IMG/VR virus record: IMGVR_UViG_3300033067_001757
Coordinates: 123,244 to 187,243 of that record
Direction: 5' to 3' (one strand)
DNA: 64,000 nucleotides
Source: a virus
Lineage: Duplodnaviria > Caudoviricetes
The translations under genes were made by a program, and so were the position numbers. Within the stretch, counting starts at the first letter, position 1. Each line of letters starts with the position of its first letter. Under the pieces are notes generated by a model that saw only the letters and a program-made list of their open reading frames with translations, ran no database searches and was not told the DNA's origin. Shown in pieces: positions 31,343-62,256 of the stretch.

Positions 31343-31375
31343 TTTGTTCGGCTATCAAATAAAGTTCTACATTGC
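31343..31375 (+). promoter_or_regulatory. host-type early promoter (TTTG-N21-TACATTGC)
   Basis: -33 TTTG and near-consensus -7 element preceded by AAGTTC; heads the plus-strand early region. Confidence 0.55.
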
Positions 31376-31396
31376 ACTATCAAATTTTATTAACCG

Positions 31397-31426
31397 TTCT
31401 GCATCTCACAACAATAAGATGCAGGA
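31397..31426 (+). promoter_or_regulatory. 5' UTR hairpin with CACAACAAUA loop
   Basis: 10-bp stem TTCTGCATCT/AGATGCAGGA; loop matches the three downstream hairpins. Confidence 0.75.
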
Positions 31427-31441
31427 CACAAAACAAAAGTT

Positions 31442-32023
31442 ATGAAACAGGAAATTAAAGTTAGGTTGGTAGGTAAAAATGTAAAGCAGCATACCATAAC
31501 TAACGAAGGTTCAGTAAGTGTAAACAGGCAGGTTACTGATATTGCAGTTCTGCTTTGTTTAGATGCAACCCAATTTGAAAAGCTGCCAAAAGTTGAGGTT
31601 GTTTACAATGGTGTAACACATTCTTTCAACATGGTGAAAGATGCCGCAAAATTATCTTTCACTTTGTTGCTCGAAATTGGTAAGGTATTGTTTTCTAATG
31701 TTACCACTTTTGAAGGTCGTACGGAACAAAGCAGTAACCCTATTGCATTAGCAATACTTGTACCTTTTAAGTACAAGGAAAAAACCGTGTCATATGAAGC
31801 ATACACTAAAGCCATTAGTGTAAAGTTTTCCGGTCTCAAAACATTGGTTAAACACGAGCAAAACAAAGCAGCTTTTTTAGATACTGCTTTTAATGCTACT
31901 GTTTCTATTGCCAAAATTGCGAATAGCGAATATTCAAAAATCGCTAAAGGTGCAAAGGAAATTGCCGCTAAAGGTTATGCTGCTGCCATTGCTGCAAACC
32001 GTTTGCCCGTTGCTACTGCTTAA
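31442..32023 (+). CDS. orphan basic protein, candidate RNA-binding regulator
   Basis: 193 aa, Lys/Ala-rich C-terminus, first gene after the early promoter, flanked by conserved-loop hairpins; the function is inference. Confidence 0.75.
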   Translation: MKQEIKVRLVGKNVKQHTITNEGSVSVNRQVTDIAVLLCLDATQFEKLPKVEVVYNGVTHSFNMVKDAAKLSFTLLLEIGKVLFSNVTTFEGRTEQSSNPIALAILVPFKYKEKTVSYEAYTKAISVKFSGLKTLVKHEQNKAAFLDTAFNATVSIAKIANSEYSKIAKGAKEIAAKGYAAAIAANRLPVATA

Positions 32024-32031
32024 TTTTTGAT

Positions 32032-32206
32032 AGGGTTACAATACAACAATTTTGCAGCCCTTAATTAGTTATTAGTTAGCGTTTATTGTGAGTATGGTTT
32101 GAACTTGTGCAATACAACAATTTTGCAGCAAGTTGTTAAACGCTCTTTTACATAGTTTGTTTATAGTCTAATTTAAGATGCCGCAATACAACAATTTTGC
32201 AATGGC
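32032..32206 (+). repeat. three-copy hairpin array, core CAATACAACAATTTTGCA
   Basis: Exact 18-mers at 32039, 32110 and 32184, each closed by a different outer stem. Confidence 0.9.
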
Positions 32207-32224
32207 TTTATACTGTTTACATTG

Positions 32225-33225
32225 TACATATCTTTTACAAAAATTAAAGGTAAAGTACACTAAAAAATGTTTATAGTAAACTCGAAAGTAAACGATAACA
32301 AACAGGTATGTACTAAATTTGTGCAGCTATCTTTTTTGAATAGCGGGAGCAATACATTAAAACAATTATGTACCCGTGAAAAAAATTTAAACTACTGCGT
32401 AAACTAAACTTCCGTTCCTTCATGTTTCTACATGGTGTATCATATAACGGATTGATGTTTACAAAGTGATAAGGTTTAAATCGTGTGTATCCCAGTACGC
32501 ACATTCATAAAACATTAGCTTAATCAATAACAGCACAAACGTACATAAGGCCATCGTGATACTGTTGATCAGGTAAGAGGTATGTCTATACCCAGCCAGG
32601 GATACGTGTGTACATTCGTGTGCCCATACTCCCACTTGTGCTACCTGGAACGGTCATAAAGCATCTACCTTAAATGGTTGGTTTTGTAGTTTGATGCTTA
32701 CACGTTTACATGAAAACTACACCAAAGCGGGTACGCATACGCTGAGGATACCGGATGAGTCCGGATAATATATGCCCATGAACGAATTGTTATACTTAGC
32801 ATTCGCATGGATCAAAACTATAAGTAAGTACATTCACTACCGGAACCATGTACAGTACACCAGGTTAACCGGTTCAACGTCCGCGGCATCATGTGCTTCG
32901 GCGCTTTTGTTATATCCCAACATAAATGACAACCATCGTTAAGCAGTATAATTCACAGGCAATTGCGTAAGCCCTGTACTTAAAATCGTAAGTCTTAGCA
33001 CATACAGTCATACTCGGGATCAATGGGCAACGACGTAGCTATCCCCCTCACGGGTTTGGTTAGGAGCTTCGTATGGCTCCCCCATTGCGGCAGGTAAGGT
33101 AAACATGTGTAAACCGGTAACCAACCCGTTACATGCATAAGCCCTTACCAAATCAACCGGTTGCGTAATACCTGTCCCTTCATAGACAGTTAGATAGACT
33201 CGCAGTCTGTCCCGGTTGCTAACTA
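32225..33225 (+). ncRNA. candidate large structured non-coding RNA (about 1 kb, boundaries approximate)
   Basis: No credible ORF; many nested and long-range helices with G-U pairs, UUCG loops and an H-type pseudoknot. Confidence 0.6.
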
Positions 33226-33237
33226 AAAATTAAGGTT

Positions 33238-33360
33238 ATGCGACATCTAAAACTGTACAGGCAAATCAGGTTATGGGAACTGAAGATAACTAAAATGAGT
33301 TCTCTGCATAAGGTAATGTGGAAAGCTGAATGGTTTAAGCACAGGCAAGCGATACAGTAA
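33238..33360 (+). CDS. 40-aa basic peptide (not in ORF track)
   Basis: TAAGGTT-ATG start; MRHLKLYRQIRLWELKITKMSSLHKVMWKAEWFKHRQAIQ. Confidence 0.55.
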   Translation: MRHLKLYRQIRLWELKITKMSSLHKVMWKAEWFKHRQAIQ

Positions 33361-33445
33361 GTTATCTTCCTTTCAGACGTACATACATATCAAAACAACA
33401 TTCACGGGCTTAAATCGCCTTAAAATCGCTAAATCAATAAAGGTC

Positions 33446-33568
33446 ATGTACATTCTCATAGTTCCGGTACTGGCAGCCATTAAGATTATACTTGTTATCC
33501 TGCAGAATCCAAAGGTAGATTTGGAATCAGGTAATTATGATGTTCTGCCAAGTAATATACCGGTGTAA
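33446..33568 (+). CDS. 40-aa membrane peptide (not in ORF track)
   Basis: AATAAAGGTC-ATG start; MYILIVPVLAAIKIILVILQNPK... Confidence 0.6.
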   Translation: MYILIVPVLAAIKIILVILQNPKVDLESGNYDVLPSNIPV

Positions 33569-33588
33569 TCAAAAAACAAATAAAGGTC

Positions 33589-33594
33589 ATGTAA
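33589..33594 (+). promoter_or_regulatory. start-stop (ATG-TAA) minigene
   Basis: Perfect AATAAAGGTC start motif, then ATG TAA overlapping the terminator stem. Confidence 0.6.
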
Positions 33595-33626
33595 GGAATG
33601 TTGGCTTAGGTTGGCATTCCTTTTTT
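33593..33626 (+). terminator. intrinsic terminator
   Basis: AAGGAATGTTGGC-TTAG-GTTGGCATTCCTT followed by a T tract. Confidence 0.75.
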
Positions 33627-33679
33627 ACTTCACATTCAATCACTTCAATAAAACGCCCGTATCCGGGTAAAGAAAGGTC

Positions 33680-33943
33680 ATGGAAAGAGCAATTGTAATC
33701 CCGATGCCAACAGTACTTGGCAAGATAGACTTAAACGCAATCAACCAGCGTGAGCAACAGGCTAAGAAGGCCAAACGTGTGTTCATTAATGAATCTCGTG
33801 AGAAGGCTGAGGAATTTAATGAAACCTTGGACCGAAAGAAGAAACAGGAAAACCTTCACAAAGACCTGCAAAGAGCTTTCTCACGCAGACCTGGTGCCAC
33901 TGTTACAGATGATCATGGCCATCTGGTGATCAAATTAAGTTAA
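33680..33943 (+). CDS. hypothetical protein
   Basis: 87 aa, VLGKIDL motif, AAAGGTC-ATG start. Confidence 0.7.
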   Translation: MERAIVIPMPTVLGKIDLNAINQREQQAKKAKRVFINESREKAEEFNETLDRKKKQENLHKDLQRAFSRRPGATVTDDHGHLVIKLS

Positions 33944-34064
33944 ATGCCCTACAGGGCACTTTTCCACTCGGTCCCGGTACTACTCGTAACTGATATAGGC
34001 CGGGGCTATTCTATTAAACGTCCGTTACGGACAATTAAAACGCCCTTATAGGGCAATTAAGATC

Positions 34065-34475
34065 ATGGAAACAGGTACAGTATTAAACCAGCAAGAGTTA
34101 TTCCTACTCGTTAAACAGGAAGCTGAGAACTTAAAAGTACATGCTACACAGGAAGAGCTGTCTAATTTGAGTTTTGATAAATTGGGTCCTTTAAACGCTG
34201 ATGCATGTGTATACGGATTGATGACTGGTTGTTGTTACAGTACAAGAGCTACTGAACTTATAAACTTATGCTGCGAAAGAGTTATAAGTGATGATTCTGG
34301 TGTAAGCAGCAGCAGAGTATTGAATAGATCACCAAAGACATCAATCAGAACGTCATACTGGTCACCAATAGAAGTTTACATTGCTCAGGAAGGACAGTTG
34401 ATTAGTAACAACAAATCCCTCATATCCTTTCTTAAGTCCGAAACAGATACTCTAACCTTTAACGAAGCTATATGA
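34065..34475 (+). CDS. hypothetical protein
   Basis: 136 aa, CVYG.MTG.C motif. Confidence 0.7.
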   Translation: METGTVLNQQELFLLVKQEAENLKVHATQEELSNLSFDKLGPLNADACVYGLMTGCCYSTRATELINLCCERVISDDSGVSSSRVLNRSPKTSIRTSYWSPIEVYIAQEGQLISNNKSLISFLKSETDTLTFNEAI

Positions 34476-34627
34476 ACCACATCACACTCCTTCAGGCACA
34501 AAACAGGATCAACTACTTAAACGGTATAATCTCCATTCTTGGTACCCGGTTGGCTCATAAATACGTATTGGAACTTGACAACCTGGTTGCATACATCGAA
34601 ACACTTAACTGGGAGCTTGGCTATTGA
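34472..34627 (+). CDS. small hypothetical protein (51 aa, not in ORF track)
   Basis: ATGA overlap with the previous gene. Confidence 0.5.
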   Translation: MNHITLLQAQNRINYLNGIISILGTRLAHKYVLELDNLVAYIETLNWELGY

Positions 34628-34667
34628 AGAAATCCGGTCAGTATTCGAAGCAAACCGTAGGATGGTT

Positions 34668-34698
34668 GAGGGCATTAGCTTTCAGCCCTCTTGTTTTT
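34668..34698 (+). terminator. probable intrinsic terminator
   Basis: GAGGGC...GCCCTC followed by TTGTTTTT. Confidence 0.5.
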
Positions 34699-35112
34699 CG
34701 GTAAAAAAGCATTAATGAAGCGTTTTGGTATTAACATTTCATTAGCACTGTTTTATTTGTTAATATATATCCAATTTTTATGGATTTATTTGGTGGTTTG
34801 CACGGGAGGGGCAGCTTCCCTCCCATCCGGTCGGTCGCACCCTACGGGGTATGTTATGATTTGTAGACCTGTTATTCCATAAATGTTATTTGTATATACA
34901 AATGTTTCCCACTTTTTACCACAAAATCCCACATAGGTATGGTTTATAGTATGTTTGTATATACAAATATAATAGTTCTTCAACATTTCGTACACACTCG
35001 TTAGCATCGTTCCAACAAGTTCAGAATAATATTTGTTTAGCCCCGGCTCCCGATGCTCCGGGACATATCACCTTATTACACTCACCTTTTAAATACCCGT
35101 AATGGGATTTCA

Positions 35113-35316
35113 ATGAATCACTTTGAACATAAAATGTATACTTCCCTTCGCAGTCAGGGTATTGAACAGGAAATTGCCGCTAAGTCATCTTCTTTATTGT
35201 TGGCAGTATTGGCAAATGTTGCTATGATCAGGGAAGATGGGAAGCCTTGTGTGTTTATTGGTATCTCGGATGTAGATATTGAAAAGATAATTAAGGCTTT
35301 ACAATCTTTAAAATAA
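35113..35316 (+). CDS. hypothetical protein
   Basis: Start taken at MNHFE. Confidence 0.5.
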   Translation: MNHFEHKMYTSLRSQGIEQEIAAKSSSLLLAVLANVAMIREDGKPCVFIGISDVDIEKIIKALQSLK

Positions 35317-35323
35317 TCTCAGT

Positions 35324-35656
35324 ATGCAAGAGATACATTCATATGATTGCAGTAAGCAATGTACAGGATTATACATTGATGTGAACGGAACAGGCAGAGA
35401 ATACAATGTATTACTTTTAGTACAGGCTTATTCCAAACGTAGCCGGAAAGGAAAGATTGTTGTATCTACCAAACCATTCCCGGATTGTATTAAAGTAAAA
35501 CGTGAAGATTGGGAAAGAGATATAAAGCATTATAATATCGTTGATTGGAATAATTATATCTGGCCGGTTTTTAATACTGCTCATATCACTCTTGCTTTTA
35601 CCAGGTTTAAAAATAAGAAATTGTATATCCGTGTAATTCCTAATACTAAATCGTAA
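35324..35656 (+). CDS. hypothetical protein
   Basis: 110-aa ORF. Confidence 0.6.
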   Translation: MQEIHSYDCSKQCTGLYIDVNGTGREYNVLLLVQAYSKRSRKGKIVVSTKPFPDCIKVKREDWERDIKHYNIVDWNNYIWPVFNTAHITLAFTRFKNKKLYIRVIPNTKS

Positions 35657-36039
35657 TGAATATGCAAATCATAACTCTTTCCAATGGTAAACGTGTTGCT
35701 AACTTCAGCAGCCCACATCCTTTTGTTTTTACAGATGGTAGTATTTTACCAGGTGTATCAGAACGAGATGCTTTGTGGTATGCTGTTACCTTTATAGAAG
35801 ACGATCTTGGTAATGGTGATATCAAACTTACATTTGATATTACAGATGCTATATGGAATCTTATGATCAGATGGAATGAAGCGTGGGGAGCTAAAGAAGT
35901 CGATGTTGTATTCTGTCCTTTACCGATGATCATCGCTTTACATAATTGGGGATACAATGTCCGTAACAGTCCTTTCAGATGTATCCGTATTGAAGATCGT
36001 ATTAATAAACTCGTTTCAATTGATAAACAAACACTTTAA
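35656..36039 (+). CDS. conserved hypothetical phage protein
   Basis: LSNG.RV.NFSSPHPF.F.DG. Confidence 0.7.
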   Translation: MNMQIITLSNGKRVANFSSPHPFVFTDGSILPGVSERDALWYAVTFIEDDLGNGDIKLTFDITDAIWNLMIRWNEAWGAKEVDVVFCPLPMIIALHNWGYNVRNSPFRCIRIEDRINKLVSIDKQTL

Positions 36040-36051
36040 ATCATTATTGTT

Positions 36052-36297
36052 ATGAAAGCTCTTGCCTGTTTTGGAAAAATAATATCTCCTTACTTTGCGT
36101 CTCACAATACACCGGAACAGATATTGTATTGGTTTCAGATTAACTTTTATTCATGTTTATCTGTCAATGAACCTTCCAGTTGTACCTTTGAGTTAGATGA
36201 GAGTAAAGAATATATTCTCATATATGGTGATGAGGATCATATTGAGATAAATATGATGAATATTGTCGCGGTTGACCTTGATTTAAATCCTTATTAA
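36052..36297 (+). CDS. hypothetical protein
   Basis: 81-aa ORF. Confidence 0.55.
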   Translation: MKALACFGKIISPYFASHNTPEQILYWFQINFYSCLSVNEPSSCTFELDESKEYILIYGDEDHIEINMMNIVAVDLDLNPY

Positions 36298-36320
36298 ACA
36301 AACATTTTAAAATAAATACA

Positions 36321-36608
36321 ATGACACAAGAACGAATCAATAAGTATTTCCAATCTTCACTGGGCCAACAGTTGGATATTCTTTATTCAACATCTGATGA
36401 CAGAGTATTCATCCGTTATCACGAAGAAGCTGTAAAGCATACAGAAGGTTTACTCGATCACGGAACAGCACCGCTGGTAGACAAGACTATTGAAACCTGG
36501 TATCCCGAAGAAGATGATGAAGAAAACGAAAGGAACCTCATGAGAGAAGAGTCTAAGCGCAGGACCTTAACCGAAGATGAAAGGATTATTTATAATATTT
36601 TCGATTAA
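36321..36608 (+). CDS. hypothetical protein
   Basis: 95-aa ORF. Confidence 0.65.
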   Translation: MTQERINKYFQSSLGQQLDILYSTSDDRVFIRYHEEAVKHTEGLLDHGTAPLVDKTIETWYPEEDDEENERNLMREESKRRTLTEDERIIYNIFD

Positions 36609-36625
36609 CAAATAAAATAAAGTTT

Positions 36626-37363
36626 ATGACACAACCAACAATGTTAACATTTAACAACAACGCTGAATTAAAATCAGAGCTATTATCAAAATTGAAACAT
36701 CATCAGGAACTTGATACCTTCATACAAGGTACATGGTTAACTGATGAGAAGGTTGAAGGTAACGGATATAAAGGATGCTTCTATGGCTGTACTATGCAAA
36801 CATCCGAAAATCCTATTGGTAAATTTTCAGAGAAGTATCAGATTGATTTATGGTATTGTCATCTGACGGAAAAATTATTTGAGAATTTACCAGATGGTAT
36901 GTATCAGAAGTTTCCATATGAAAGTATTGATATACTACCGGTAGGATTTGACTTCAACATTTTGAAATCGAAGTTTCATAAAGCTGTATTATTGAAACAA
37001 TTGGATTGGATAGAAGATGTTCCTGTTAGAGAATGTTTAATATATACTTCAAAATTATTTGATGTTCCATATAATGAAATAGATAATTCAGCAGCAAGGT
37101 CAGCAACAGAGTCAGCAGCAAGGTCAGCAGCAAGGTTAGCAGCATGGTCAGCAAGGTCAGCAGCAAGGTCAGCAGCATGGTCAGCAGCATGGTCAGCAGA
37201 GTCAGCAGCATGGTCAGCAGCATGGTCAGCAGCATGGTCAGCAGAGTCAGCAGCATGGTCAGCAGAGTCAGCAAAGTCAGCAGAGTCAGCAAAGTCAGCA
37301 AAAACCAATCATTATATCTGTCTGAAAGAAACATTGTTCTCACTATTACAAGAATGCTCATAA
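36626..37363 (+). CDS. phage protein with SAA(R/W/E) helical repeats
   Basis: QG.W...KGC..GC N-terminal domain, then the repeat tract. Confidence 0.75.
   Translation: MTQPTMLTFNNNAELKSELLSKLKHHQELDTFIQGTWLTDEKVEGNGYKGCFYGCTMQTSENPIGKFSEKYQIDLWYCHLTEKLFENLPDGMYQKFPYESIDILPVGFDFNILKSKFHKAVLLKQLDWIEDVPVRECLIYTSKLFDVPYNEIDNSAARSATESAARSAARLAAWSARSAARSAAWSAAWSAESAAWSAAWSAAWSAESAAWSAESAKSAESAKSAKTNHYICLKETLFSLLQECS
37088..37303 (+). repeat. mixed 12/9-bp coding tandem repeat (TCAGCAGCAnnn / TCAGCAnnn)
   Basis: Directly visible. Confidence 0.9.
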
Positions 37364-37411
37364 CTATTATGAAAATTGTCTACCTAAGATATACAAGTTG
37401 AAGGTTGACAT

Positions 37412-37463
37412 AGGAGAGTAAGTACAGTCATCTAAACTGTGGGCTGCTCTCCTTTAATTTTTT
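37412..37463 (+). terminator. probable intrinsic terminator
   Basis: AGGAGAGTA...TGCTCTCCT stem with inner ACAGT/ACTGT helix, T-rich tail. Confidence 0.55.
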
Positions 37464-37475
37464 AAACAATCAGTC

Positions 37476-37850
37476 ATGGACAAGCATATTAAATACTTCT
37501 TACGTGGATATCTCAGGGACAAATGTCTGTGGGTACACCATAAAGGTTTCATAAATGAGTATAATAAATATTCAGGAGAACCCATTGAACGAGGTTTCGC
37601 TATCAAGGTTGAAGACTACAATAACAAGCGTGGTATCATTCATATCAGATGTTGTGCTGGTCATATTAATGCAGGTCGCCCGTTCATCGATATCAAATGT
37701 AACCAGTCTACATTCGTTCAGAGTGTACAGAATATGTTCACCAGGTTGTTTGCCCGGACAGATATCAATCTTGATTACGATCAGTTGCTTATTGATCTTG
37801 TAAATGAATGGACTGTGAGTTACCCTAAAAGAGAGTATGCTTTTTCTTAA
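37476..37850 (+). CDS. hypothetical protein
   Basis: 124-aa ORF. Confidence 0.6.
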   Translation: MDKHIKYFLRGYLRDKCLWVHHKGFINEYNKYSGEPIERGFAIKVEDYNNKRGIIHIRCCAGHINAGRPFIDIKCNQSTFVQSVQNMFTRLFARTDINLDYDQLLIDLVNEWTVSYPKREYAFS

Positions 37851-37864
37851 TATTTAAACAATCA

Positions 37865-38527
37865 ATGATGATAACAATAGATAAACGTTACACAATACAA
37901 TATTCAAAGGCAGGTGTAAGACAATTTGCTGACTTTAATTATTCTAAGGATGTCTTTGTATCACATTCATTTCACCCTTCTTGGGTGAAACAGGATGAGA
38001 TTCCTTCTTTTGAAGGAATAGAACATATTGAAGATTTTCTTAGAATAATTAAAGAATGGTCTGATGGTAATCAGGCAGAGATTATTTTAATAAATGATAA
38101 TCCACCAAATTATAAGTCTCAGGATGTTATACGGAAATGTGAAATAGAATTCAGAGATTATTTTAATAGCCTTTGTTTAAAGGTATTTACATCTGAAATA
38201 TTGCCTATTTTAAAAAGAAAGAGATGGAAAATCGGTGAATCATGGATGGGTAGAAATGTATTAATTAGAAAAACTAAGGGTGAATGGGACAATGTAGATA
38301 ACAATGACAAAAATTCTATTCTTATAGACTGTATTTGCAATAGGTTTTTGAACACCGTATTAAATTTAGATATAAAGCTTAATTTTAGAAATGAATATCG
38401 TTATACATCTGGAGACAGTTTTCCCATGTTTATTGGTTGGATTGAAGAAGAAGAGCTTATTAAGCTGAACATATTTTTAAAAAATAAAGACCTCTTGCCG
38501 TCCGGTGCTGACAGCGTCACCGTATAA
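37865..38527 (+). CDS. hypothetical protein
   Basis: 220-aa ORF. Confidence 0.65.
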   Translation: MMITIDKRYTIQYSKAGVRQFADFNYSKDVFVSHSFHPSWVKQDEIPSFEGIEHIEDFLRIIKEWSDGNQAEIILINDNPPNYKSQDVIRKCEIEFRDYFNSLCLKVFTSEILPILKRKRWKIGESWMGRNVLIRKTKGEWDNVDNNDKNSILIDCICNRFLNTVLNLDIKLNFRNEYRYTSGDSFPMFIGWIEEEELIKLNIFLKNKDLLPSGADSVTV

Positions 38528-38653
38528 ATCATACCTCTATCACAATCTCGGGTATCTTTAAAATGTTGTTAAAAAGTTCTTGTTCTATAAAACAGTTTGT
38601 ATATTTATATATTCAATATTAATCTTTTAATTATAAAAAACAAAATCAAAAAA

Positions 38654-39376
38654 ATGAAACAGTTAATTGCCTTACTATTACTTAGCACTGTATTATTCAG
38701 TAGCTGCCAGAAATCTACAATCAATCCATCAGCAACATCGGTATCTGTGGAGAACTTACAGACACTTTCCATCGATGATGGCCTTCTTTATCATTTTAAA
38801 CTTAATGGTGACCTTTCGGATTATTCCGGTAACAACTATAACGCCGGTCTCCAAAAGGGCAATGAGCGGTATGTAACAGGTCATGAAGGGGATACTGCTA
38901 TAAAAGGAATGAAGTTCGTTAAGAATATGGTACTGATGGCACCCAATCATTTTACCTTTCAGAAGACGGATAGCTTCTCTGTAAGTCTTTGGTATAAAGT
39001 TGGTGCAATAGGTAACTCAGGCAGGTTGCTATCTACAGAAGCACCGGAAGGCAACTTCAGAATAGTCATGTCGCTTGACGGGAAGCCTGTGGTTGGCTTT
39101 GCCGGCTTCTCCCTTAGTGATACTACCACCGCTAAAAAGCAATGGGTGAACCTGGTGTATACATATAACAATCATGTCGGAGCACTTTATCATAATGGAA
39201 TACTTGTAGCCTCTGGTATCGGTACAGACAATGAAGCATTGAGTTACGGATCTTTACTCGGCCTCGGTGTAAAGTCTGACATAGCTTACGATCGGTTCAT
39301 TGGAACTATGCAGGATATAAGAATATATAACAGGGCTATTACAGGTGATGAAATTACTTACTTGGCAACGCATTGA
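38654..39376 (+). CDS. lipoprotein with LamG/concanavalin A-like domain
   Basis: Signal MKQLIALLLLSTVLFSS-C (lipobox); FSVSLW, W.NLVYTY, F.G.MQDIRIYNRA. Confidence 0.8.
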   Translation: MKQLIALLLLSTVLFSSCQKSTINPSATSVSVENLQTLSIDDGLLYHFKLNGDLSDYSGNNYNAGLQKGNERYVTGHEGDTAIKGMKFVKNMVLMAPNHFTFQKTDSFSVSLWYKVGAIGNSGRLLSTEAPEGNFRIVMSLDGKPVVGFAGFSLSDTTTAKKQWVNLVYTYNNHVGALYHNGILVASGIGTDNEALSYGSLLGLGVKSDIAYDRFIGTMQDIRIYNRAITGDEITYLATH

Positions 39377-39401
39377 TTTTTGTTTCGGGTTATAAGGGAT
39401 G

Positions 39402-39435
39402 AAGTCTCGGTGACGTATGTTGCCGGGGCTTTTTT
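39402..39435 (+). terminator. intrinsic terminator
   Basis: AAGTCTCGGTGAC-GTAT-GTTGCCGGGGCTT followed by a T tract. Confidence 0.7.
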
Positions 39436-39452
39436 ATATAAAAAATTATGTT

Positions 39453-39632
39453 ATGGATAATTTACCAGACTTATTCGTCACACCTGTAAAAGAAAAGAAA
39501 GTGCGGAATGGTATTACTGCATATCAATACAGAAATGGTACCATAAGTATCGACGGACATAAGTATTTAATGTACTCAATGACTGAAGCGGTTAACTTAT
39601 ATAGAAAACAATTTCCTCACAGACAAAAATAA
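39453..39632 (+). CDS. small hypothetical protein
   Basis: Start taken at MDNLP. Confidence 0.6.
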   Translation: MDNLPDLFVTPVKEKKVRNGITAYQYRNGTISIDGHKYLMYSMTEAVNLYRKQFPHRQK

Positions 39633-39636
39633 AAAA

Positions 39637-39960: not shown

Positions 39961-39962
39961 CC

Positions 39963-49228: not shown

Positions 49229-49262
49229 AAAAGCCTCTGCTGTAAATGGTGGAGGCTTTTTT
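49229..49262 (+). terminator. intrinsic terminator
   Basis: AAAAGCCTCTGCTG-TAAA-TGGTGGAGGCTTTTTT. Confidence 0.8.
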
Positions 49263-53256: not shown

Positions 53257-53261
53257 AGGTT

Positions 53262-54163: not shown

Positions 54164-54187
54164 TCACAATTAAAAACAATAAAGGTT

Positions 54188-54394: not shown

Positions 54395-54408
54395 AAACAA
54401 TAAAGGTC

Positions 54409-54992: not shown

Positions 54993-55011
54993 AACAAAAA
55001 CATAAAAGATT

Positions 55012-55497: not shown

Positions 55498-55780
55498 AGA
55501 ATACTGGGATGAATATATAATATTAAAATCTCAGGTAATAAACGACATCGTTGAATACTGCCGGTATATGAAACCTGGAGAGCGTATTCCTTTTTTAGAA
55601 CACGGTCTTTCATTATCATGTGATCCGGATGTATATGCATATGGTTTAGTAATATCTGAAGACGGAGATGTAGGAATTGATATTGTTGATGGAGACGGAT
55701 GGTGGTCAATATACACAGACTCTCTTGAGATAGTTGACCTCATATCAATATACGAGGAATGTTTATCATCTAAAAAATAA
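55484..55780 (+). CDS. acidic hypothetical protein
   Basis: 98-aa ORF. Confidence 0.6.
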   Translation: MKTSKEYWDEYIILKSQVINDIVEYCRYMKPGERIPFLEHGLSLSCDPDVYAYGLVISEDGDVGIDIVDGDGWWSIYTDSLEIVDLISIYEECLSSKK

Positions 55781-55986
55781 TGACAATGAAACCAAGAATA
55801 TTAATTGAAGTACGAGGTGGTATCATAACATTTATCCTTTCTAATACGGACAACATAGAGATTGTAATTCTCGATCACGACTGGGAAGAAAGTCAAATTT
55901 ATAGTTATAAACCAGATAGCATAATGACTGATGAAGGACTTGATGATTATATTAAAAGAGAATTAAAAGAGGAGGATAAACAATGA
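55780..55986 (+). CDS. small hypothetical protein (I.V.GG family)
   Basis: 68-aa ORF. Confidence 0.6.
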   Translation: MTMKPRILIEVRGGIITFILSNTDNIEIVILDHDWEESQIYSYKPDSIMTDEGLDDYIKRELKEEDKQ

Positions 55987-56174
55987 AAGCAGTATTAGTT
56001 TACTGGTCTCCCATAACGAGAGTTGTGGTACCAGACGATGCGACTGAGAAAGAAATAATAGAATCAGCTCAATCTAATCTCCAACATCTGCTTGATAGAT
56101 GTTTACATGAAAACGTTGAGAAGATAGTTCCTGATACCGAATGTCCTTACGACACGGAGTTTGATAAAGAATAA
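55983..56174 (+). CDS. small hypothetical protein
   Basis: 63-aa ORF. Confidence 0.6.
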   Translation: MKAVLVYWSPITRVVVPDDATEKEIIESAQSNLQHLLDRCLHENVEKIVPDTECPYDTEFDKE

Positions 56175-56185
56175 AACATTTTATA

Positions 56186-56437
56186 ATGGAAAACTTCAAA
56201 AAAGAGTTCAGAGATTTAGAAATGAAAGTCATGCGTTCTCTGAGAGATACCATCGAGAAAAGCTCATCTGAATCGAAACATATGAATACGAAGGCTATTA
56301 AGGTTAACGTTTTTGATTACACCGAATTATGCATCGTTGATGATAGACTAACTTTTTTAGATGATTATGGTCTACACTATTCTATTTATGCAGAAGCTTC
56401 TTTGGAAGATCTTATTGACATTCTAAATTCTATATAA
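56186..56437 (+). CDS. hypothetical protein
   Basis: 83-aa ORF. Confidence 0.6.
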   Translation: MENFKKEFRDLEMKVMRSLRDTIEKSSSESKHMNTKAIKVNVFDYTELCIVDDRLTFLDDYGLHYSIYAEASLEDLIDILNSI

Positions 56438-56446
56438 TATACAACT

Positions 56447-56614
56447 ATGCCACTATACGAATGTTACGTTTCATTTACATATGAAGCAGACTCTCCTGAT
56501 GAAGCAGCAAAAATGTTCCTCACAAATATACCAATGGCAACTTGGTATGTAGGTGTCAGAGATACCGAAACGGGTGAACAGTTTACAGTCGACACGGATA
56601 CAAGCGACGTTTAA
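56447..56614 (+). CDS. small acidic protein (55 aa, not in ORF track)
   Basis: MPLYECYVSFTYEADSPDEAAK... Confidence 0.55.
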   Translation: MPLYECYVSFTYEADSPDEAAKMFLTNIPMATWYVGVRDTETGEQFTVDTDTSDV

Positions 56615-56638
56615 GCAAAATAAAAAACACTCAGCACA

Positions 56639-56992
56639 ATGACAAATCTTCTCGAACCAGCCATCCGTCATGTACTCAGAAACCATCCTCAGAGCCTTGT
56701 GGTGAGGTTGGAATCTCGTGGTAATCCAGATCATAATCAAAATCCATACGAAGCTATCTCGCCACCTCTAACGCGTCCGTGTGATACATTCGCAGATGCG
56801 GTAGAATATTGCAGGAACTATATAGGCACATATAACCTGGGTGGTGGTAACTGGAATGGTGGACAGATATACCATCCGACCAAAGGACTCATAGCTTATG
56901 TGAGTTATAATGGTAGGGTATGGAAAAGTATTACCGGCGAGTGGGAACCGGGTCAGGAAGAGATCACTGACCTTGATACAAATGACTATTAA
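56639..56992 (+). CDS. conserved phage protein (GNPD..Q / LGGGNW.GG / SYNGRVW family)
   Basis: Motifs visible. Confidence 0.75.
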   Translation: MTNLLEPAIRHVLRNHPQSLVVRLESRGNPDHNQNPYEAISPPLTRPCDTFADAVEYCRNYIGTYNLGGGNWNGGQIYHPTKGLIAYVSYNGRVWKSITGEWEPGQEEITDLDTNDY

Positions 56993-57004
56993 AATATACA
57001 TACA

Positions 57005-57190
57005 ATGACCAGAGAAGAATTATTGGATAAGCTTTGTTATTATGACATACGAAATCCTTATTGCCCGTTCGATGAGGAAGAACTTTTGGAACGAAAGAAA
57101 GATGTTAATAATAACGGACCTTGCTATTGCGATAACTGTTTCTATGGTCGTACACCACTTGCAGAAGAACTATTAAAATATATACAATGA
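57005..57190 (+). CDS. small Cys-rich protein
   Basis: C.CDNCFYGR. Confidence 0.65.
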   Translation: MTREELLDKLCYYDIRNPYCPFDEEELLERKKDVNNNGPCYCDNCFYGRTPLAEELLKYIQ

Positions 57191-57408
57191 AACAATACAC
57201 AATACCAATCGTGTGGCAAACTTGGAAAACATTTGAAGTAGATGCCAATAATTTACAGGAAGCTGTTCAAAAAGCGCTTAGTCAGTTTTTTTCAGAACCA
57301 TGTTCTGATGGTAATTATCTGGAAGATTCTTTTGAAATAGATGGAATCATTGAAGATAACTATCCAGATGAAGAATACGATTTAAACAAAGCAATACAAT
57401 TAACATGA
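57187..57408 (+). CDS. small acidic protein
   Basis: 73-aa ORF. Confidence 0.65.
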   Translation: MKQYTIPIVWQTWKTFEVDANNLQEAVQKALSQFFSEPCSDGNYLEDSFEIDGIIEDNYPDEEYDLNKAIQLT

Positions 57409-57626
57409 AACCATACGAATTTGATAAGATCGATTTCCCTATGCTGAAAGAACAGAAGATACATTTACTTGAAGTGATAGATATTGTAGAGAAGAGTAAT
57501 GTTGTATCACAGGATCAATATGACTCACTCACAGGTATCCTTCATCTCATAGACAGCATCCGGGACTACGCAGTAGACGAGCTTGGATATGACGAGAATG
57601 AAGTATTCAATTTAACTGAAGAATAA
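57405..57626 (+). CDS. small acidic protein
   Basis: 73-aa ORF. Confidence 0.65.
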   Translation: MKPYEFDKIDFPMLKEQKIHLLEVIDIVEKSNVVSQDQYDSLTGILHLIDSIRDYAVDELGYDENEVFNLTEE

Positions 57627-57640
57627 AAAACAATCATACA

Positions 57641-57820
57641 ATGCAAAACATAATAACATACGGACAGTATATCATCAGCATATCAGGATATGGTCTCGCT
57701 ATATACTATTATTTAGCGTACAAGCAGCAGAGCAAAGAAAGTGAACATCATCTTAAACTTGCAAACCTGATGCAGAAAATGTATAACAGGTTAAAGAACC
57801 GTACAAAAGTATTACCATGA
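57641..57820 (+). CDS. small membrane-anchored protein (59 aa, not in ORF track)
   Basis: Fills the gap; ATGA overlap with the next gene. Confidence 0.5.
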   Translation: MQNIITYGQYIISISGYGLAIYYYLAYKQQSKESEHHLKLANLMQKMYNRLKNRTKVLP

Positions 57821-58059
57821 AAAAGAAACAACTGTATATCGCACAAGTAAATCTTGCTGTAGTAATAGAAGAAGGTCAAGCTGTTGAAGACGCAGTACAC
57901 GCCATGCTATCTGAGAATCTTGAGATGAGTGGTGCTCTACTGGATTGGGGATATGTTGGAGATCGTATATCGTTGTATAAGATCAACGATGACTTCGATG
58001 AATCTCAATATGGTGAAGGTGACTTCCTGGAACATGTAACAGATAATTTTGAAATATGA
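57817..58059 (+). CDS. small acidic protein
   Basis: 80-aa ORF. Confidence 0.6.
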   Translation: MKKKQLYIAQVNLAVVIEEGQAVEDAVHAMLSENLEMSGALLDWGYVGDRISLYKINDDFDESQYGEGDFLEHVTDNFEI

Positions 58060-58358
58060 AAAAGAAAAAAGGTAATTACATCACTGAGATACTTTGTCAT
58101 GATGTGTCTTGGTGGGTTGACGTTGATTCAGTTACTGAACTGGATGATTGTTCTATTGAGCATATCGAACAATGTATTACAGACGGCTGTAGGCAAGGTG
58201 ATCTGAATGTATCTTATGGAAAGAACATGCAGAAAGAAGCAACTGGATGGTGGTATATTATTAACTGGAAAGACATTGCTCTTGAGTTGAGAAACACTTA
58301 TCAAAATGGAGCTATTGAGACAGCGGTCAGACGCTTTGATGATGAGTGGACGTTTTAA
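58056..58358 (+). CDS. hypothetical protein
   Basis: 100-aa ORF. Confidence 0.6.
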   Translation: MKKKKGNYITEILCHDVSWWVDVDSVTELDDCSIEHIEQCITDGCRQGDLNVSYGKNMQKEATGWWYIINWKDIALELRNTYQNGAIETAVRRFDDEWTF

Positions 58359-58376
58359 TCATTCAAAATAAAGGTC

Positions 58377-58790
58377 ATGAAAACAAAGTTTAAGATCGTC
58401 ATCTATGATGAGATATATTACTGGTCAGATGATATCAAAAAAGTATGCTCCAATATCTTTACGGTATACTTGTATGATAAGTCTGTGATAACGCATTGCT
58501 GTGAGATCACTCCGTCATATGAGTTACATCCTCTATATTACGTACCAGTATTCAAAAATGGTGAATGTTGTAATCATCCGGACAACATGGATTGGGTGGA
58601 GATTATCGACAGAGAGTTTATTAATGAACAGATAATCTATGTCCATTGCAGCGATGTGGAAAGGAATACCAGCGGTAAAAATATAAACATCTCCTATCTG
58701 AATAAATCTGTTAAGAACAGAGATAGCGACAGGTATCAGGATGTATTAACTGAGGCGTGTGACTATCTTAATTGTAATCATGTTTACTGA
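58377..58790 (+). CDS. hypothetical protein
   Basis: Motif start; THCCEITPSY. Confidence 0.7.
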   Translation: MKTKFKIVIYDEIYYWSDDIKKVCSNIFTVYLYDKSVITHCCEITPSYELHPLYYVPVFKNGECCNHPDNMDWVEIIDREFINEQIIYVHCSDVERNTSGKNINISYLNKSVKNRDSDRYQDVLTEACDYLNCNHVY

Positions 58791-58836
58791 GTAGCCTCTT
58801 GTGCTTCAGTAAAAACAAACATATTGAATTAATCAT

Positions 58837-58861
58837 AGCCGTGTTTCCGATACGGCTTTTT
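58837..58861 (+). terminator. intrinsic terminator
   Basis: AGCCGTGT-TTCCG-ATACGGCT followed by TTTT. Confidence 0.65.
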
Positions 58862-58900
58862 ATATTTACATTACAAAAACTTTAAAAACAAATAAAGGTT

Positions 58901-59428
58901 ATGTCAAACAGAAATTACAACCTCTCACTCACAGCCAAAGCTGAATGGGGTGGACAGGAAATAGAATTATCATTCGATCCATACAACGACTGTACAGATA
59001 TGGATGGACTTAGGGAATTGGCTGTTGATGAGTTTGATCCTCTTGAACCCGAAGATGAAGATGGTGAACCCACGGTTCCGGATGCAGATGATATCAATAT
59101 AACCATCACCGACTACGACGAGGTACCATCCTCATATGCGAATGAAAAGGATGTGTGGGACTTCGCTGAAGCATTTGCTGAATGTGAGCAAACGATAGAA
59201 GTGGTTGAAGCTGCTTTATATTGTGGGGTGTCTGCAGATGATATAGACGAAGCGTATCAGGGTGAGTATTCCAGTGATGAAGATTTTGCGCAGGAAACAG
59301 CCGAATCATTAGGAGCAATAGACAAAGATGCCAAATGGCCAATGAACTGTATCGACTGGGAGTATGCTGCTAAGGAACTGATGTATGATTACTCAGATCA
59401 TAACGGACATTATTTTAGGAACTTTTAA
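58901..59428 (+). CDS. ardA: ArdA-like antirestriction (DNA mimic) protein
   Basis: Very acidic; I.DYD, YQGEY.S.EDFA.E, IDWE..A.EL..DY, G..FR. Confidence 0.75.
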   Translation: MSNRNYNLSLTAKAEWGGQEIELSFDPYNDCTDMDGLRELAVDEFDPLEPEDEDGEPTVPDADDINITITDYDEVPSSYANEKDVWDFAEAFAECEQTIEVVEAALYCGVSADDIDEAYQGEYSSDEDFAQETAESLGAIDKDAKWPMNCIDWEYAAKELMYDYSDHNGHYFRNF

Positions 59429-59438
59429 ACAAATCATA

Positions 59439-60026
59439 ATGGAACAGACAAAATTCATAACAAAAGAAGAAGCGCTGAAAGATTCTAACAGCAATATCAA
59501 CCAGGACATCAAACGTAAGTTTGTAGATCGCGAGGTGATGGCTTGTGTGACTTCACTAGTCGAGTATGTACTCAGCAAAAGTCAGGAAGGAGACAGAGAT
59601 GCTCCATTCAGTATTGATGATGTGGAGAATTATTATACTTATCCAGAATATCATGGAGATTACACAGACTTTGATGGTGGTACAGAGGAAGAAAGAGATG
59701 CTGAGATTGAACGGTTAAAAGAATTATCAGAAAAAGAAAAGCTCGATGAATTTGGTGCAAGAGTAGACTTGATAGAAAATGATATTGCTGAACTGGAAGC
59801 ACTCGACAACGAGCCACAAGAAGTCTTTGAATGGTGGTTGGTGACTGACCGGTTCTATGAGAAGCTAAAGGCCCAAGGTGAGGTTGTAATAGACGATGGA
59901 TGGCTACATTACTATGGCAGATGCTGCAGCGGCCAGGCTATATTGCTTGATCATAACATCAGTGTCATAGCAGCCGATATGGGTATCTTGGATGGACAAG
60001 AACATAGCTGGGCTGACCGTAAATAA
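59439..60026 (+). CDS. conserved acidic phage protein (E.FEWW.V / GR...GQAI..D family)
   Basis: Start taken at MEQTK. Confidence 0.7.
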   Translation: MEQTKFITKEEALKDSNSNINQDIKRKFVDREVMACVTSLVEYVLSKSQEGDRDAPFSIDDVENYYTYPEYHGDYTDFDGGTEEERDAEIERLKELSEKEKLDEFGARVDLIENDIAELEALDNEPQEVFEWWLVTDRFYEKLKAQGEVVIDDGWLHYYGRCCSGQAILLDHNISVIAADMGILDGQEHSWADRK

Positions 60027-60046
60027 TCACATTAAAGCTATATAAA

Positions 60047-60448
60047 ATGAAAACGAAAATAGAACTGTTACAAGAAACAAATCCTGATCTAATACTATGC
60101 TTCAAGATAGGTCGCGGTGGAAGATTTAATAACGCAGGTCATTTATCATTCTATGGAGAGAATAAGATTAGTGAACCGATGTTCACCGATCCATTATTTC
60201 TTAATGAAGATGAGACAGAATATGTTGATAGCAATGGTAGGGAAGTCGGTTTGAGATTGGATAATGATGGTACCGGCATAATTGATATTGACGGCGATTA
60301 CGATACCACTTACGCAATACATGTTGCTGATTTGACAGAGAAGGAATTCGATGTAATCAAACAAAGAGGGAAAGGCTTCTTTGGATTATCAATGGATCAG
60401 TTTGATGCTATTGATTATTTTGAAGAAGAAGTAGATGAAGAAGAATAG
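60047..60448 (+). CDS. conserved acidic phage protein
   Basis: IGRGGRF.N.GH, DGDYDT.Y. Confidence 0.7.
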   Translation: MKTKIELLQETNPDLILCFKIGRGGRFNNAGHLSFYGENKISEPMFTDPLFLNEDETEYVDSNGREVGLRLDNDGTGIIDIDGDYDTTYAIHVADLTEKEFDVIKQRGKGFFGLSMDQFDAIDYFEEEVDEEE

Positions 60449-60531
60449 GGTAAGATTGCTCCTACCCTATATTGAAAGCAAATCACAATGTGAATTGAGA
60501 GCGCAATATAACTAAAAAACAAATAAAGGTC

Positions 60532-60771
60532 ATGAGTAAAAAAGAATTAATTGGTAAGATCTTCGTGATCAACCATACCAAATCAAGCAACGTGACGGCT
60601 ATGAAGCCTTATCCGATCATCGGTTGTACAACGATAAAAGAAGCCAACCGTGTAAACAAAATCCTCAACAGTCAGAGTCCAAACAGTAAATTTGAGGTAT
60701 CTACGATCAGTTGTTTCGAAGCTTTAAGTCCACAGACATTGGGTAAGCTGATAGCTGATCAGGTCTTTTAA
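60532..60771 (+). CDS. hypothetical protein
   Basis: Motif start. Confidence 0.65.
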   Translation: MSKKELIGKIFVINHTKSSNVTAMKPYPIIGCTTIKEANRVNKILNSQSPNSKFEVSTISCFEALSPQTLGKLIADQVF

Positions 60772-60784
60772 AATATTAAAACAT

Positions 60785-61078
60785 ATGGAAACGAAATACA
60801 CAGACGGTACCTGGTATGCTAAACAGTACACACATGATTGGTATGTAGCATCTGATTCAGGTAGAAGTAATGACATAGCACTTGTCAGAGGTTCAGATGA
60901 AGAAGCCAAACACAATGCTTTGCTTATAGCAACGGCTAAAAATATGTATGAGACACTCGACGAATCTACTAATAGAATCCAGTATTGTCTTAATATATAT
61001 GATCTACCACCGGAAGTAGAAGAAATTCTCAATCGTGAACTTATCGCTATGACGCGAGCAATGCCAAATTTTGATTAA
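60785..61078 (+). CDS. hypothetical protein (T.G.W / NA.LIA family)
   Basis: Common phage accessory motif. Confidence 0.65.
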   Translation: METKYTDGTWYAKQYTHDWYVASDSGRSNDIALVRGSDEEAKHNALLIATAKNMYETLDESTNRIQYCLNIYDLPPEVEEILNRELIAMTRAMPNFD

Positions 61079-61096
61079 CAATTAAAACATACAACA

Positions 61097-61456
61097 ATGA
61101 GCACACTAACAAAAGAAAACAAGATAGCAATTCTTGAAGCATTATTAGCCACTGTACAACTTGATCATCCTGAGTTTCAGGAAGAAAATAGTACCACATG
61201 GGACATGATCGAGAGTGGAAAATTATTTATTCAGGAACTTGAATCAGACGATGATATCGAAGCATTTGGATTCGCTATATGTGATGTCATAGATTATGCT
61301 GAGAATAATCTATTTGATAGCCCCATAGAAATAACCAGAGAAGAAGCAATTCAAATACTCGATCGTATGCGGTGCAAGGCTGATATATCAATTGGTGTAT
61401 CATGGGAAACACTGGAGTATTTTATAAGAGAGTTTCTGGAAAACAAGAATGGTTAA
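61097..61456 (+). CDS. acidic hypothetical protein
   Basis: 119-aa ORF. Confidence 0.65.
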   Translation: MSTLTKENKIAILEALLATVQLDHPEFQEENSTTWDMIESGKLFIQELESDDDIEAFGFAICDVIDYAENNLFDSPIEITREEAIQILDRMRCKADISIGVSWETLEYFIREFLENKNG

Positions 61457-61530
61457 CAAAAAATTAACACAGATACAGAGAGCTTATTATACAAGTTCTC
61501 TAATTTCGTACACAACATAAAATAAAGGTC

Positions 61531-61785
61531 ATGAAAAATAAACATATCGTTCTTATAGAACGTAAAACAGATTTCGATTCTCCTGTCATCGCAGCGATCA
61601 CTACAGGCCCCGGACAAACAGAAAGAATTACAACAGCGCTATCAGAACACTTTGATTGTGGTGTTACAAAGCTGAAAGTGAAGATAGACAAGTCATCACA
61701 AATGGGTAATGGTTCTTTTGAAATGGAAGATGATGACAACTACCCACCAATAGAATTCGACATCTATCCGATATGGATTTACTAA
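61531..61785 (+). CDS. hypothetical protein
   Basis: Motif start. Confidence 0.65.
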   Translation: MKNKHIVLIERKTDFDSPVIAAITTGPGQTERITTALSEHFDCGVTKLKVKIDKSSQMGNGSFEMEDDDNYPPIEFDIYPIWIY

Positions 61786-61816
61786 ATAAGTTTTGGGTTA
61801 ATAATAATTGATACAC

Positions 61817-61852
61817 ACCGGTGCCGGTTTCGTCCGGCTGCTGGTCTTTTTT
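61817..61852 (+). terminator. intrinsic terminator
   Basis: ACCGGT-GCCGG-TTTCGT-CCGGC-T-GCTGGT-C followed by T6. Confidence 0.7.
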
Positions 61853-61881
61853 AATTTATGACAGTTTAAAAAACATTTTAT

Positions 61882-62256
61882 ATGAAAGTTTGGTTGATAC
61901 AAGAAGAACAAGTTTCTCCCGAAGATGGTCCTCTTTACTGGACAAACCGTAATGGTTGGATAGATGCGCAGGATGAGGCTGATACATTCTCAGATGAAGC
62001 GCAGAAACATACACAATTACCCATCGGTGGAATATGGGTAAAAGAAAATCGTCAATGGTCCGTTGTAAAAAAAGATGCTATTGAATCTATGTTGATAGAT
62101 ATGTGGGCGTCTATAGGTATGGGCATACCTGAAAACTATGAAGACCTCGTGCAGGATTGTTACGAAGATGTCTGTTCATGTGCTGATCCCGAAAACTGGC
62201 ACAGTGGAGATGTCGCTATCGCATTCAGGAGATGGATTGAAGATCAAACTAAATAA
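61882..62256 (+). CDS. hypothetical protein
   Basis: 124-aa ORF. Confidence 0.65.
   Translation: MKVWLIQEEQVSPEDGPLYWTNRNGWIDAQDEADTFSDEAQKHTQLPIGGIWVKENRQWSVVKKDAIESMLIDMWASIGMGIPENYEDLVQDCYEDVCSCADPENWHSGDVAIAFRRWIEDQTK

Follow-up and report, generated by a model that had tools for sequence, protein, structure and literature searches.

The final 64 kb of a phage record of 187,243 bp in IMG/VR (IMGVR_UViG_3300033067_001757, positions 123244 to 187243; this whole stretch is called the window and is numbered from its first nucleotide (nt)) contain, from 31.4 kb onward, a block of small plus-strand genes that is poor in promoters and rich in intrinsic terminators relative to its own genome. 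No other result of the analysis is as strong as this contrast, which is drawn from promoter and terminator counts in the block and elsewhere in the genome. Because the block combines these two properties, and because the intervals that follow the terminators leave too little room for the kinds of promoter that this phage uses, expression of its distal genes plausibly depends on RNA polymerase reading through terminators. The explanation that we rank first, with a probability of about 0.3, is processive antitermination loaded at the head of the block, where a basic orphan protein gene is bracketed by four hairpins that share one loop.

To our knowledge, almost nothing is known about how transcription is organized in large phages of Bacteroidota. 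The record provides an internally controlled contrast, in which promoters recur at intervals of about 4 kb and terminators are few on one arm of the genome, while on the other promoters are nearly lacking and strong terminators recur every 4–5 kb. If read-through is actively driven, no phage antitermination system would have been described before this one in the Bacteroidota, its components would be new, and biochemical work could start readily from the hairpin-loop motif; internal promoters, if they are responsible instead, would constitute a third promoter class for such phages. If functional, the locus would add a new variant to the known forms of processive antitermination, a proposal that is at present built on the architecture of one uncultivated metagenomic genome.

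Promoter and terminator content of the gene block

The record reads as the genome of a tailed phage of at least 187 kb and divides, by a simple gene call, into two arms. The minus arm spans record 3.4–145.5 kb and carries tRNA arrays together with genes for DNA polymerase, ribonucleotide reductase, major head protein, portal, terminase and tail. The plus arm begins at window position 22912, not at 31442, exits through the contig end and continues for 3.4 kb from the start of the record. About 79 plus-strand open reading frames (ORFs) with a median length of about 100 amino acids lie between 31442 and 61882, matching the roughly 80 genes that an earlier note on this DNA had placed after the head, and the minus-strand ORFs inside the 31.4–64 kb block are short overlapping artefacts. 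To judge by its predicted genes, the block packs small accessory genes closely together, all in one direction. Family matches within it are scarce, the exceptions being an ArdA-like gene (58901), a Laminin_G_3 gene (38654), a tail-fibre-like C-terminus (36626) and a DUF6745 gene (47396); the block genes are probably early or middle host-takeover genes, the ArdA-like gene among them.

Two promoter matrices were built from the genome itself. The first, a two-block position weight matrix (PWM) of sigma-A type, derives from 16 textbook Bacteroidota promoters of the form ATTTGG-N19-20-TAnnTTTGC, which support a host in the Bacteroidota; these training sites score 20.7–30.8, and no other site in the genome exceeds 16.5. 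The canonical sites lie on the minus strand at record 8.5–83 kb and, within the window, at 585(−), 22625(−) and 26046(+). The second matrix describes a late type with the consensus tGATATTTATATA(TA)CAA, of which there are about 25 copies with scores of at least 14.3 (21 training sites, 14.3–22.3). Late-type sites occupy the sense strand of the minus arm, 0–25 nt ahead of the start codons of structural and other genes, a position that implies that late mRNAs would be leaderless or very short-leadered; those in the window are at 6497(−), 15995(−), 30765(−), 30806(−) and 38601(+).

Outside the block there are about 40 promoters in 154 kb, or about one per 4 kb, so that about eight would be expected in its 32.6 kb. 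Instead the block has no sigma-A site and a single late-type site, at 38601. When the sigma-A class is taken as a −33 TTTG and a −7 TAnnTTTG box with a 19–21 nt spacer, the best scores of the block (12.8) and of its head (11.4) stand against at least 20.7 for the canonical sites. That no promoter is visible in the gaps after the terminators, as had been claimed, therefore extends to the whole block, where no Bacteroidota promoter was found in any position (best PWM score 12.8).

The intrinsic terminators of the block are as follows, with free energies of folding (dG) in kcal/mol.

33595–33626, plus strand: terminator T1, 13-bp stem followed by UUUUUU, dG −15.1, z score −3.5
34658–34698, plus strand: terminator T2, dG −17.8
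37413–37463, plus strand: terminator T3, dG −16.3, 3′ of gene 36626–37363
39404–39435, plus strand: terminator T4, dG −14.9; the next start is likely the in-frame ATG at 39453
49233–49262, plus strand: terminator T5, dG −12.5
58838–58861, plus strand: terminator T6, dG −9.1
61817–61851, plus strand: terminator T7, dG −17.2

All seven terminators listed by the earlier note are present and intergenic, each with a GC-containing hairpin of 9–14 bp (dG −9 to −18 kcal/mol) and a U-tract in the sense orientation, encoded by five or six T; the U-tracts of T2 and T3 are interrupted, and T6 is weak. An independent scan of 33.2–64 kb found eight sense terminator-like sites, seven of them T1–T7, against 1.5 ± 1.2 (maximum 5) in 40 dinucleotide shuffles, an approximately fivefold excess. 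Strong sense intergenic terminators number five in the 142-kb minus arm and seven in 31 kb of the block, where their density is about 6.5 times higher. The gaps that hold the terminators are only 40–112 nt long, and the distance from T-tract to next start codon is 12–53 nt, in agreement with the 12–55 nt reported earlier for six of the seven. T2 is the exception, as its nearest following ORF, of 55 amino acids, is doubtful and a solid gene follows only after 355 nt. Intervals of 12–53 nt are too short for a −33/−7 promoter plus an untranslated region (UTR).

The only motif enriched in the 45 intergenic gaps of the block is a start-codon context, AATAAAGGTYATG, which the minus arm has too. It lies about 10–25 nt downstream of the predicted start of canonical promoters (record 43572→43546, 67041→67017 and 79567→79550), a position that identifies it as a 5′-UTR or translation signal; its candidacy as a promoter was rejected, since it sits inside 5′ UTRs behind canonical promoters. 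The start context AATAAAGGT(C/T)ATG occurs at 23 plus-arm starts (about 19 within 33–64 kb, for example 33446, 40494, 43699 and 58901) and at 12 minus-arm starts at record 16–80 kb; the late structural region lacks it. The TAA of this context often doubles as the stop codon of the upstream gene (TAA-N5-ATG), and the context is too near the ATG for normal Shine-Dalgarno geometry.

Two further features touch on termination. An ATG-TAA start-stop with the full start motif before its ATG (33589–33626, plus strand, with the terminator to which it is fused) overlaps the first bases of the 5′ arm of T1, and a ribosome parked on it could block the T1 hairpin; a general coupling of ribosomes to terminators was considered and dropped, as a stop codon comes within a ribosome footprint of the terminator only at T1 and T5. 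On the minus strand outside the window, canonical promoters precede intrinsic terminators by 40–190 nt (record 83033→82993, 17403→17286 and 30133→29941), which suggests attenuation or antitermination control elsewhere in the phage.

The head of the block

The head comprises a putative promoter region, a 5′-UTR hairpin, the orphan gene, three further hairpins and a long stretch free of ORFs.

31315–31376, plus strand: putative head promoter or promoters in an AT-rich tract, TTTC-N20-TAACTTTG (−7 at 31339) and TTTG-N21-TACATTGC (−7 at 31369)
31396–31430, plus strand: hairpin H0 in the 5′ UTR, stem of 11 bp, loop CACAACAAUA; its 3′ end is about 12 nt upstream of the ORF start
31442–32023, plus strand: orphan ORF 31442, 193 amino acids, Lys-rich, isoelectric point 9.6
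32032–32061, 32102–32134 and 32180–32206, plus strand: hairpins H1–H3, each with the exact 18-mer CAATACAACAATTTTGCA and the loop UACAACAAUU
32207–33237, plus strand: leader of about 1 kb without ORFs, rich in GTACA/TACAT, with GC up to 45% in 32701–33237
32878–32912, plus strand: terminator-like hairpin and UUUUGUU within the leader, dG −10.7, z −1.2 (weak)

The promoter proposed earlier for this head does not hold as a canonical match (PWM score 11.4), while the sequence that it has in common with the other plus-arm head does: the two share a 19-nt block, AAATWAAGTTCTACATT...TCAAAT, the second copy being at 22700–22735, where the −7 box is perfect. This shared block makes a promoter at 31.3 kb plausible. 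The resulting 5′ UTR of ORF 31442 would be about 90 nt long, against 14–20 nt at the other promoters of the phage, and it contains H0, a strong hairpin (dG −15.5, z −5.6) whose stability was equalled by none of 200 shuffles.

The hairpin array described in the earlier note is borne out: four same-loop hairpins flank ORF 31442, and the 10-nt loop YACAACAAUW is identical in the minimum-free-energy folds of H0–H3 on stems that differ. The outer stems of H1–H3 are GGGUU/AGCCC, CUUG/CAAG and GCC/GGC (dG −8.3, −10.5 and −5.8). Neither the 18-mer nor the loop-in-hairpin layout occurs anywhere else in the 187-kb genome. The conserved centre is asymmetric and the arms vary yet remain complementary, which argues for stem-loops that would be read through the loop rather than for a dimeric DNA operator. 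This anatomy, like the promoter and terminator statistics, is observed directly.

Three other readings of H1–H3 were dropped. A clustered regularly interspaced short palindromic repeats (CRISPR)-like array does not fit conservation that spans 18–20 nt only; DNA iterons do not fit arms that change while keeping their complementarity around an asymmetric conserved centre; and tandem promoters do not fit a TTTG-to-box spacing of 16–17 nt, against 19–20, with PWM scores of about 9. A scan of IMG/VR for the exact 18-mer gave no match, and one for two spaced 12-mers gave only Asn/Thr-rich repeat genes. Three spaced loops were matched at least 120 times in a metagenome scan; the 40 matches inspected are leucine-rich or other tandem repeats, and none of the at least 120 resembles the head region by blastn.

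ORF 31442 has no PHROG or Pfam match even at E ≤ 10, PF17362 of ConAn1 included. A word-index search of 5.8e9 proteins returns only the query, and an exhaustive HMMER search of 1.8e9 representatives adds two repeat artefacts (Calx-beta and Ig-like, about 21% identity); back-translation gave no match in IMG/VR. Its single-sequence AlphaFold model has a predicted local distance difference test (pLDDT) score of 42 and is unusable for a fold search, and its feature matches in the ESM Atlas are all below 0.9 and unnamed, a "Translation repressor" at 0.81 being at chance level.

The leader that follows had been described as a structured RNA (32030–33225), a description that is unsupported by single-sequence evidence. 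Whole-region folding gives z = −1.55 on the plus strand and −0.83 on the minus strand, and local signals are confined to 32750–32899 (z −2.3) and 33100–33249 (z −2.9). Pairing of its two ends, 32059–32080 with 33218–33235, is at chance level for a 3.4-kb region. No frame opens in 32030–33225 under any reassignment of stop codons, and the leader has no tRNAs and no Rfam match at the gathering score or at E ≤ 5. No homologue was found by blastn in INPHARED phages, in 80 loci around a neighbouring conserved gene or in one locus that shares gene 34065, and short matches at chance level, none of them to the leader, were all that came from the five largest records among the nearest relatives by capsid. 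Of the protein-plus-leader-RNA antitermination model first put forward for this block, the need for read-through is made plausible by the promoter and terminator contrast, and the RNA component is unsupported, with no folding, Rfam or comparative signal from this single sequence.

Internal elements of the first 8 kb

The block had been taken as a single 30-kb early operon. Its scarcity of promoters and wealth of terminators agree with this, while the picture of one clean unit is broken by late-type elements (34886–34970 and 38601), and the first 8 kb appear to be a mosaic that holds late-expressed cassettes.

33238–33360 and 33446–33568, plus strand: two mini-ORFs of 40 amino acids that bear the start-codon motif of the phage
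33653–34053, plus strand: cluster of small GC-rich hairpins without U-tracts, stems of 4–7 bp and loops of 3–5 nt, for example GUCCGUUACGGAC
34886–34970, strand not assigned: two palindromes resembling late promoters (TTTGTATATACAAAT), located after T2 in a 170-nt gap upstream of gene 35053
36626–37363, plus strand: tail-fibre-like gene preceding T3, its C-terminus resembling tail-fibre PHROGs
38601–38616, plus strand: late-type promoter ATATTTATATATTCAA, PWM score 14.6, 38 nt before gene 38654
38654–39376, plus strand: Laminin_G_3 (PF13385, E 1.5e-17), virion-structural-like gene
58901–59428, plus strand: ArdA-like anti-restriction gene, the first after T6 and beyond the mosaic (PHROG anti-restriction, E 1.5e-8; Pfam ArdA, 26.6 bits against a cut-off of 27)

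One of the palindromic elements holds a perfect −7 box, TATGTTTG, at 34950, and its minus-strand reading scores 13.0. The promoter at 38601, gene 38654 and T4 form a promoter-gene-terminator cassette. The promoter-free run proper is therefore 39.45–64 kb, that is 25 kb with about 60 genes and T5–T7.

The GC-rich hairpins lie in the gaps just after T1 and before gene 34065. Their cores are CCGTWACGG or GCCC-N3-5-GGGC with covarying stem extensions, and they are intergenic only at the two plus-arm heads, at 22576, 22770, 22829, 30775, 30926, 33656, 33946, 34022 and 34042.

Comparison with known systems

The nearest system in layout is conAn (ConAn1 and conAn2) of pLS20 and other conjugative plasmids of Gram-positive bacteria (PMC8191782, PMC8955417). 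There, too, a gene for a protein of 170–190 amino acids and, directly after it, a non-coding region head a co-directional operon of about 30–32 kb, which has many internal intrinsic terminators and no internal promoters. ConAn1, however, has the pXO2-34 processivity domain PF17362, which ORF 31442 lacks at both E ≤ 0.01 and E ≤ 10, and this absence places the locus outside the conAn family as judged from its sequence. The non-coding parts differ as well, conAn2 having 260–600 bp with a GC-rich tract and defined stem-loops, against 1.2 kb here with three loop-sharing hairpins and nothing structured beyond them. Host phylum and replicon type are also different.

The N/nut system of lambda is similar in placing promoter-proximal hairpins on both sides of a small early gene, before the first terminator, the parallel being the order pL-nutL-N and pR-cro-nutR-tR1. 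Lambda N represses its own translation through nutL, which would correspond to the position of H0 beside the ORF start. The components themselves are unlike: N is a disordered protein of about 107 amino acids with an arginine-rich motif, whereas ORF 31442 encodes 193 amino acids, is Lys-rich with four Arg and has predicted secondary structure; boxB has a 5-bp stem and a GNRA-like pentaloop, whereas H0–H3 have 10-nt loops on interrupted stems of 7–11 bp; and no boxA-like element was identified. The separate GC-rich hairpins are of boxB size yet are unlinked to any protein.

HK022 put and Bacillus EAR (PMC9378689, PMC8191782) are likewise cis-acting leader RNAs that stand before terminators in long operons. 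They are compact and well folded, in contrast to the present leader, which has no folding signal and no Rfam match, the coverage of put and EAR by Rfam being unconfirmed. In the delayed-early transcription of T4 (PMC2988021), upstream early transcripts of a large myovirus are extended past termination sites and so serve to express the genes beyond, and a phage factor, ComC-alpha, is suspected and unproven; the barriers there are thought to be Rho-dependent and early and middle promoters are numbered in dozens, whereas here the terminators are intrinsic and promoters are nearly absent. Finally, the NusG paralogues UpxY of Bacteroides and LoaP of Bacillus (PMC7819879, PMC12691694) mediate operon-specific antitermination that is directed by the 5′ leader in long operons, Bacteroidota included.

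Possible antitermination and its alternatives

We prefer to think of the block in terms of processive antitermination, in which most of the array would be expressed by elongation complexes that read past the terminators without re-initiation, and the terminators would also kill transcription begun at the wrong places. The loading module would most likely be the head. RNA polymerase starting at about 31350–31380 would transcribe H0, ORF 31442 and H1–H3, and the basic orphan protein would recognise the common loop YACAACAAUW. Binding to H0, beside its own start codon, would provide autoregulation, and binding to H1–H3 would keep it attached to the elongating complex in the manner of N at nut sites. 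We infer transcription from the head, the binding of protein to hairpin and the effect on RNA polymerase. The inverse densities of promoters and terminators fit active antitermination, and operons with many internal terminators and antitermination encoded at the head do exist (PMC8191782, PMC8955417). A narrower claim, that the system is of a new type in which the orphan protein reads the YACAACAAUW hairpins, one at its own ribosome-binding region and three shortly beyond its gene, and rides RNA polymerase through at least seven terminators over 30 kb, with no sequence relationship to N, Q, put, EAR, ConAn or the NusG paralogues, we regard as distinctly unlikely.

Several points weigh against antitermination loaded at the head. 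At the head itself, the promoter is non-canonical, its score being below the canonical range, and H1–H3 are individually weak (z −0.8 to −2.0). ORF 31442 is by every search made an orphan with no homologue, family or usable fold, and with four Arg in 193 residues and no Arg cluster it lacks an arginine-rich motif. The sliding 150-nt folding z score is about 0 across 32.2–33.1 kb, and the leader itself holds the terminator-like hairpin at 32878–32912. A search of the whole record with PF02357 for a NusG-like protein gave at best 13 bits (E 0.02) with three internal stops. Further along, the late-type elements at 34.9 and 38.6 kb weaken the single-operon picture, no YACAACAAUW hairpins lie downstream of internal late-type promoters, and predicted terminators may be non-functional in vivo (PMC8955417). 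The case also concerns a single genome, whose nearest relatives in IMG/VR are about 49% identical to it in the major capsid protein and lack every part of the block; the complete 173-kb relative G001 has no block protein in common with it and a different layout. The timing of expression is a further difficulty. An anti-restriction gene is expected to be expressed promptly. The ArdA-like gene sits 27 kb from the head, and at a transcription speed of about 50 nt/s (PMC2988021) it would be reached only after at least about 9 min, a delay that suits immediate action against restriction poorly and is a reason to keep considering hidden promoters.

Such promoters, belonging to a third class missed by both matrices, are a possibility on the unlikely side. 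They would drive the block, the terminators being the ordinary ends of transcription units; they might be read by a phage-modified host polymerase or a phage sigma-like protein and might overlap T-tracts or upstream genes. The head promoter itself is non-canonical, which under this explanation means that the arm uses signals scored poorly by both models, and the T-run followed by A-rich sequence behind T3–T7 is faintly like the late promoter core. Prompt expression would presumably be needed for the methyltransferases at the end of the contig and for the ArdA-like gene, which comes immediately behind T6. A weakly Sigma70_r2-like ORF of 287 amino acids amid the structural genes (19392–20255, minus strand; Sigma70 region 2, 19.6–22.1 bits against a cut-off of 24) is a possible late sigma factor, and promoter types beyond the two modelled may exist, which counts against head-loaded antitermination as well. 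However, the motif search of the 45 gaps yielded only the start-codon context, and −7-only boxes (TAnnTTTG) are at or below their chance frequency. The sequences after the terminators are absent among the top late-matrix scores (roughly below 10) and reach at most 12.8 on the sigma-A matrix, and gaps of 40–112 nt leave these promoters little room.

Passive attenuation, which we consider rather unlikely, would have partial terminators grade expression and insulate modules while polymerase leaks through with no dedicated factor, and would make the head module an unrelated autoregulated locus for an RNA-binding protein. Partial read-through is common in phage transcriptomes, 132 terminators having been mapped in phage 201phi2-1 (PMC11512511), and the middle RNA of T4 arises by extension of early transcripts (PMC2988021). 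In the present genome several sense terminators of the minus arm have no promoter in the next 2–4 kb, and the low stability of T6 (dG −9.1) and interrupted U-tracts of T2 and T3 are compatible with leakage. Seven canonical terminators in series would nevertheless leave very little distal expression even if each were moderately efficient, and on the minus arm, with its promoter every 4 kb or so, the density of strong sense terminators is lower by a factor of about 6.5.

Antitermination could also be brought about by another element than the head module. Xp10 p7 and P23-45 gp39 are factors that modify RNA polymerase globally. A modifier of this kind encoded elsewhere in the phage, or a factor recruited by the CCGUWACGG-type hairpins, seems very doubtful: these hairpins covary in their stem extensions, are boxB-like in size and are intergenic only at the two plus-arm heads, and the promoter-proximal terminators of the minus arm (83033→82993 and 17403→17286) hint at wider control of termination, but no candidate factor was identified, the palindromes are equally explicable as DNA-binding sites or RNA-stability elements, and several of them lie upstream of, and outside, the presumed transcript.

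Other features of the record

The record ends without a seamless join. A methyltransferase-like ORF (63830–64000) is severed by the contig end, and within record 1–600 a DPPY-motif methylase begins near record position 145, the two ends not being joinable in frame; the record is probably not quite complete despite a completeness estimate of 100%. Neither Terminase_6C nor single-subunit RNA polymerase families have a match in the record, the latter search having been run without a positive control.

Between the plus-strand blocks lies a lone minus-strand gene (30359–30742), which is phrog_7595-like and has its own tandem late promoters; its start is probably an ATG near 30742 rather than the listed TTG at 30802. 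Many canonical promoters have AGAACTT / AAGTTCT half-sites or palindromes (for example GAGAACT-N5-AGTTCTC) in or near the spacer, and these look like operators for a phage regulator. The 636-bp divergent region between the arms contains a 200-bp extremely AT-rich tract with short repeats (22370–22560), a candidate replication origin.

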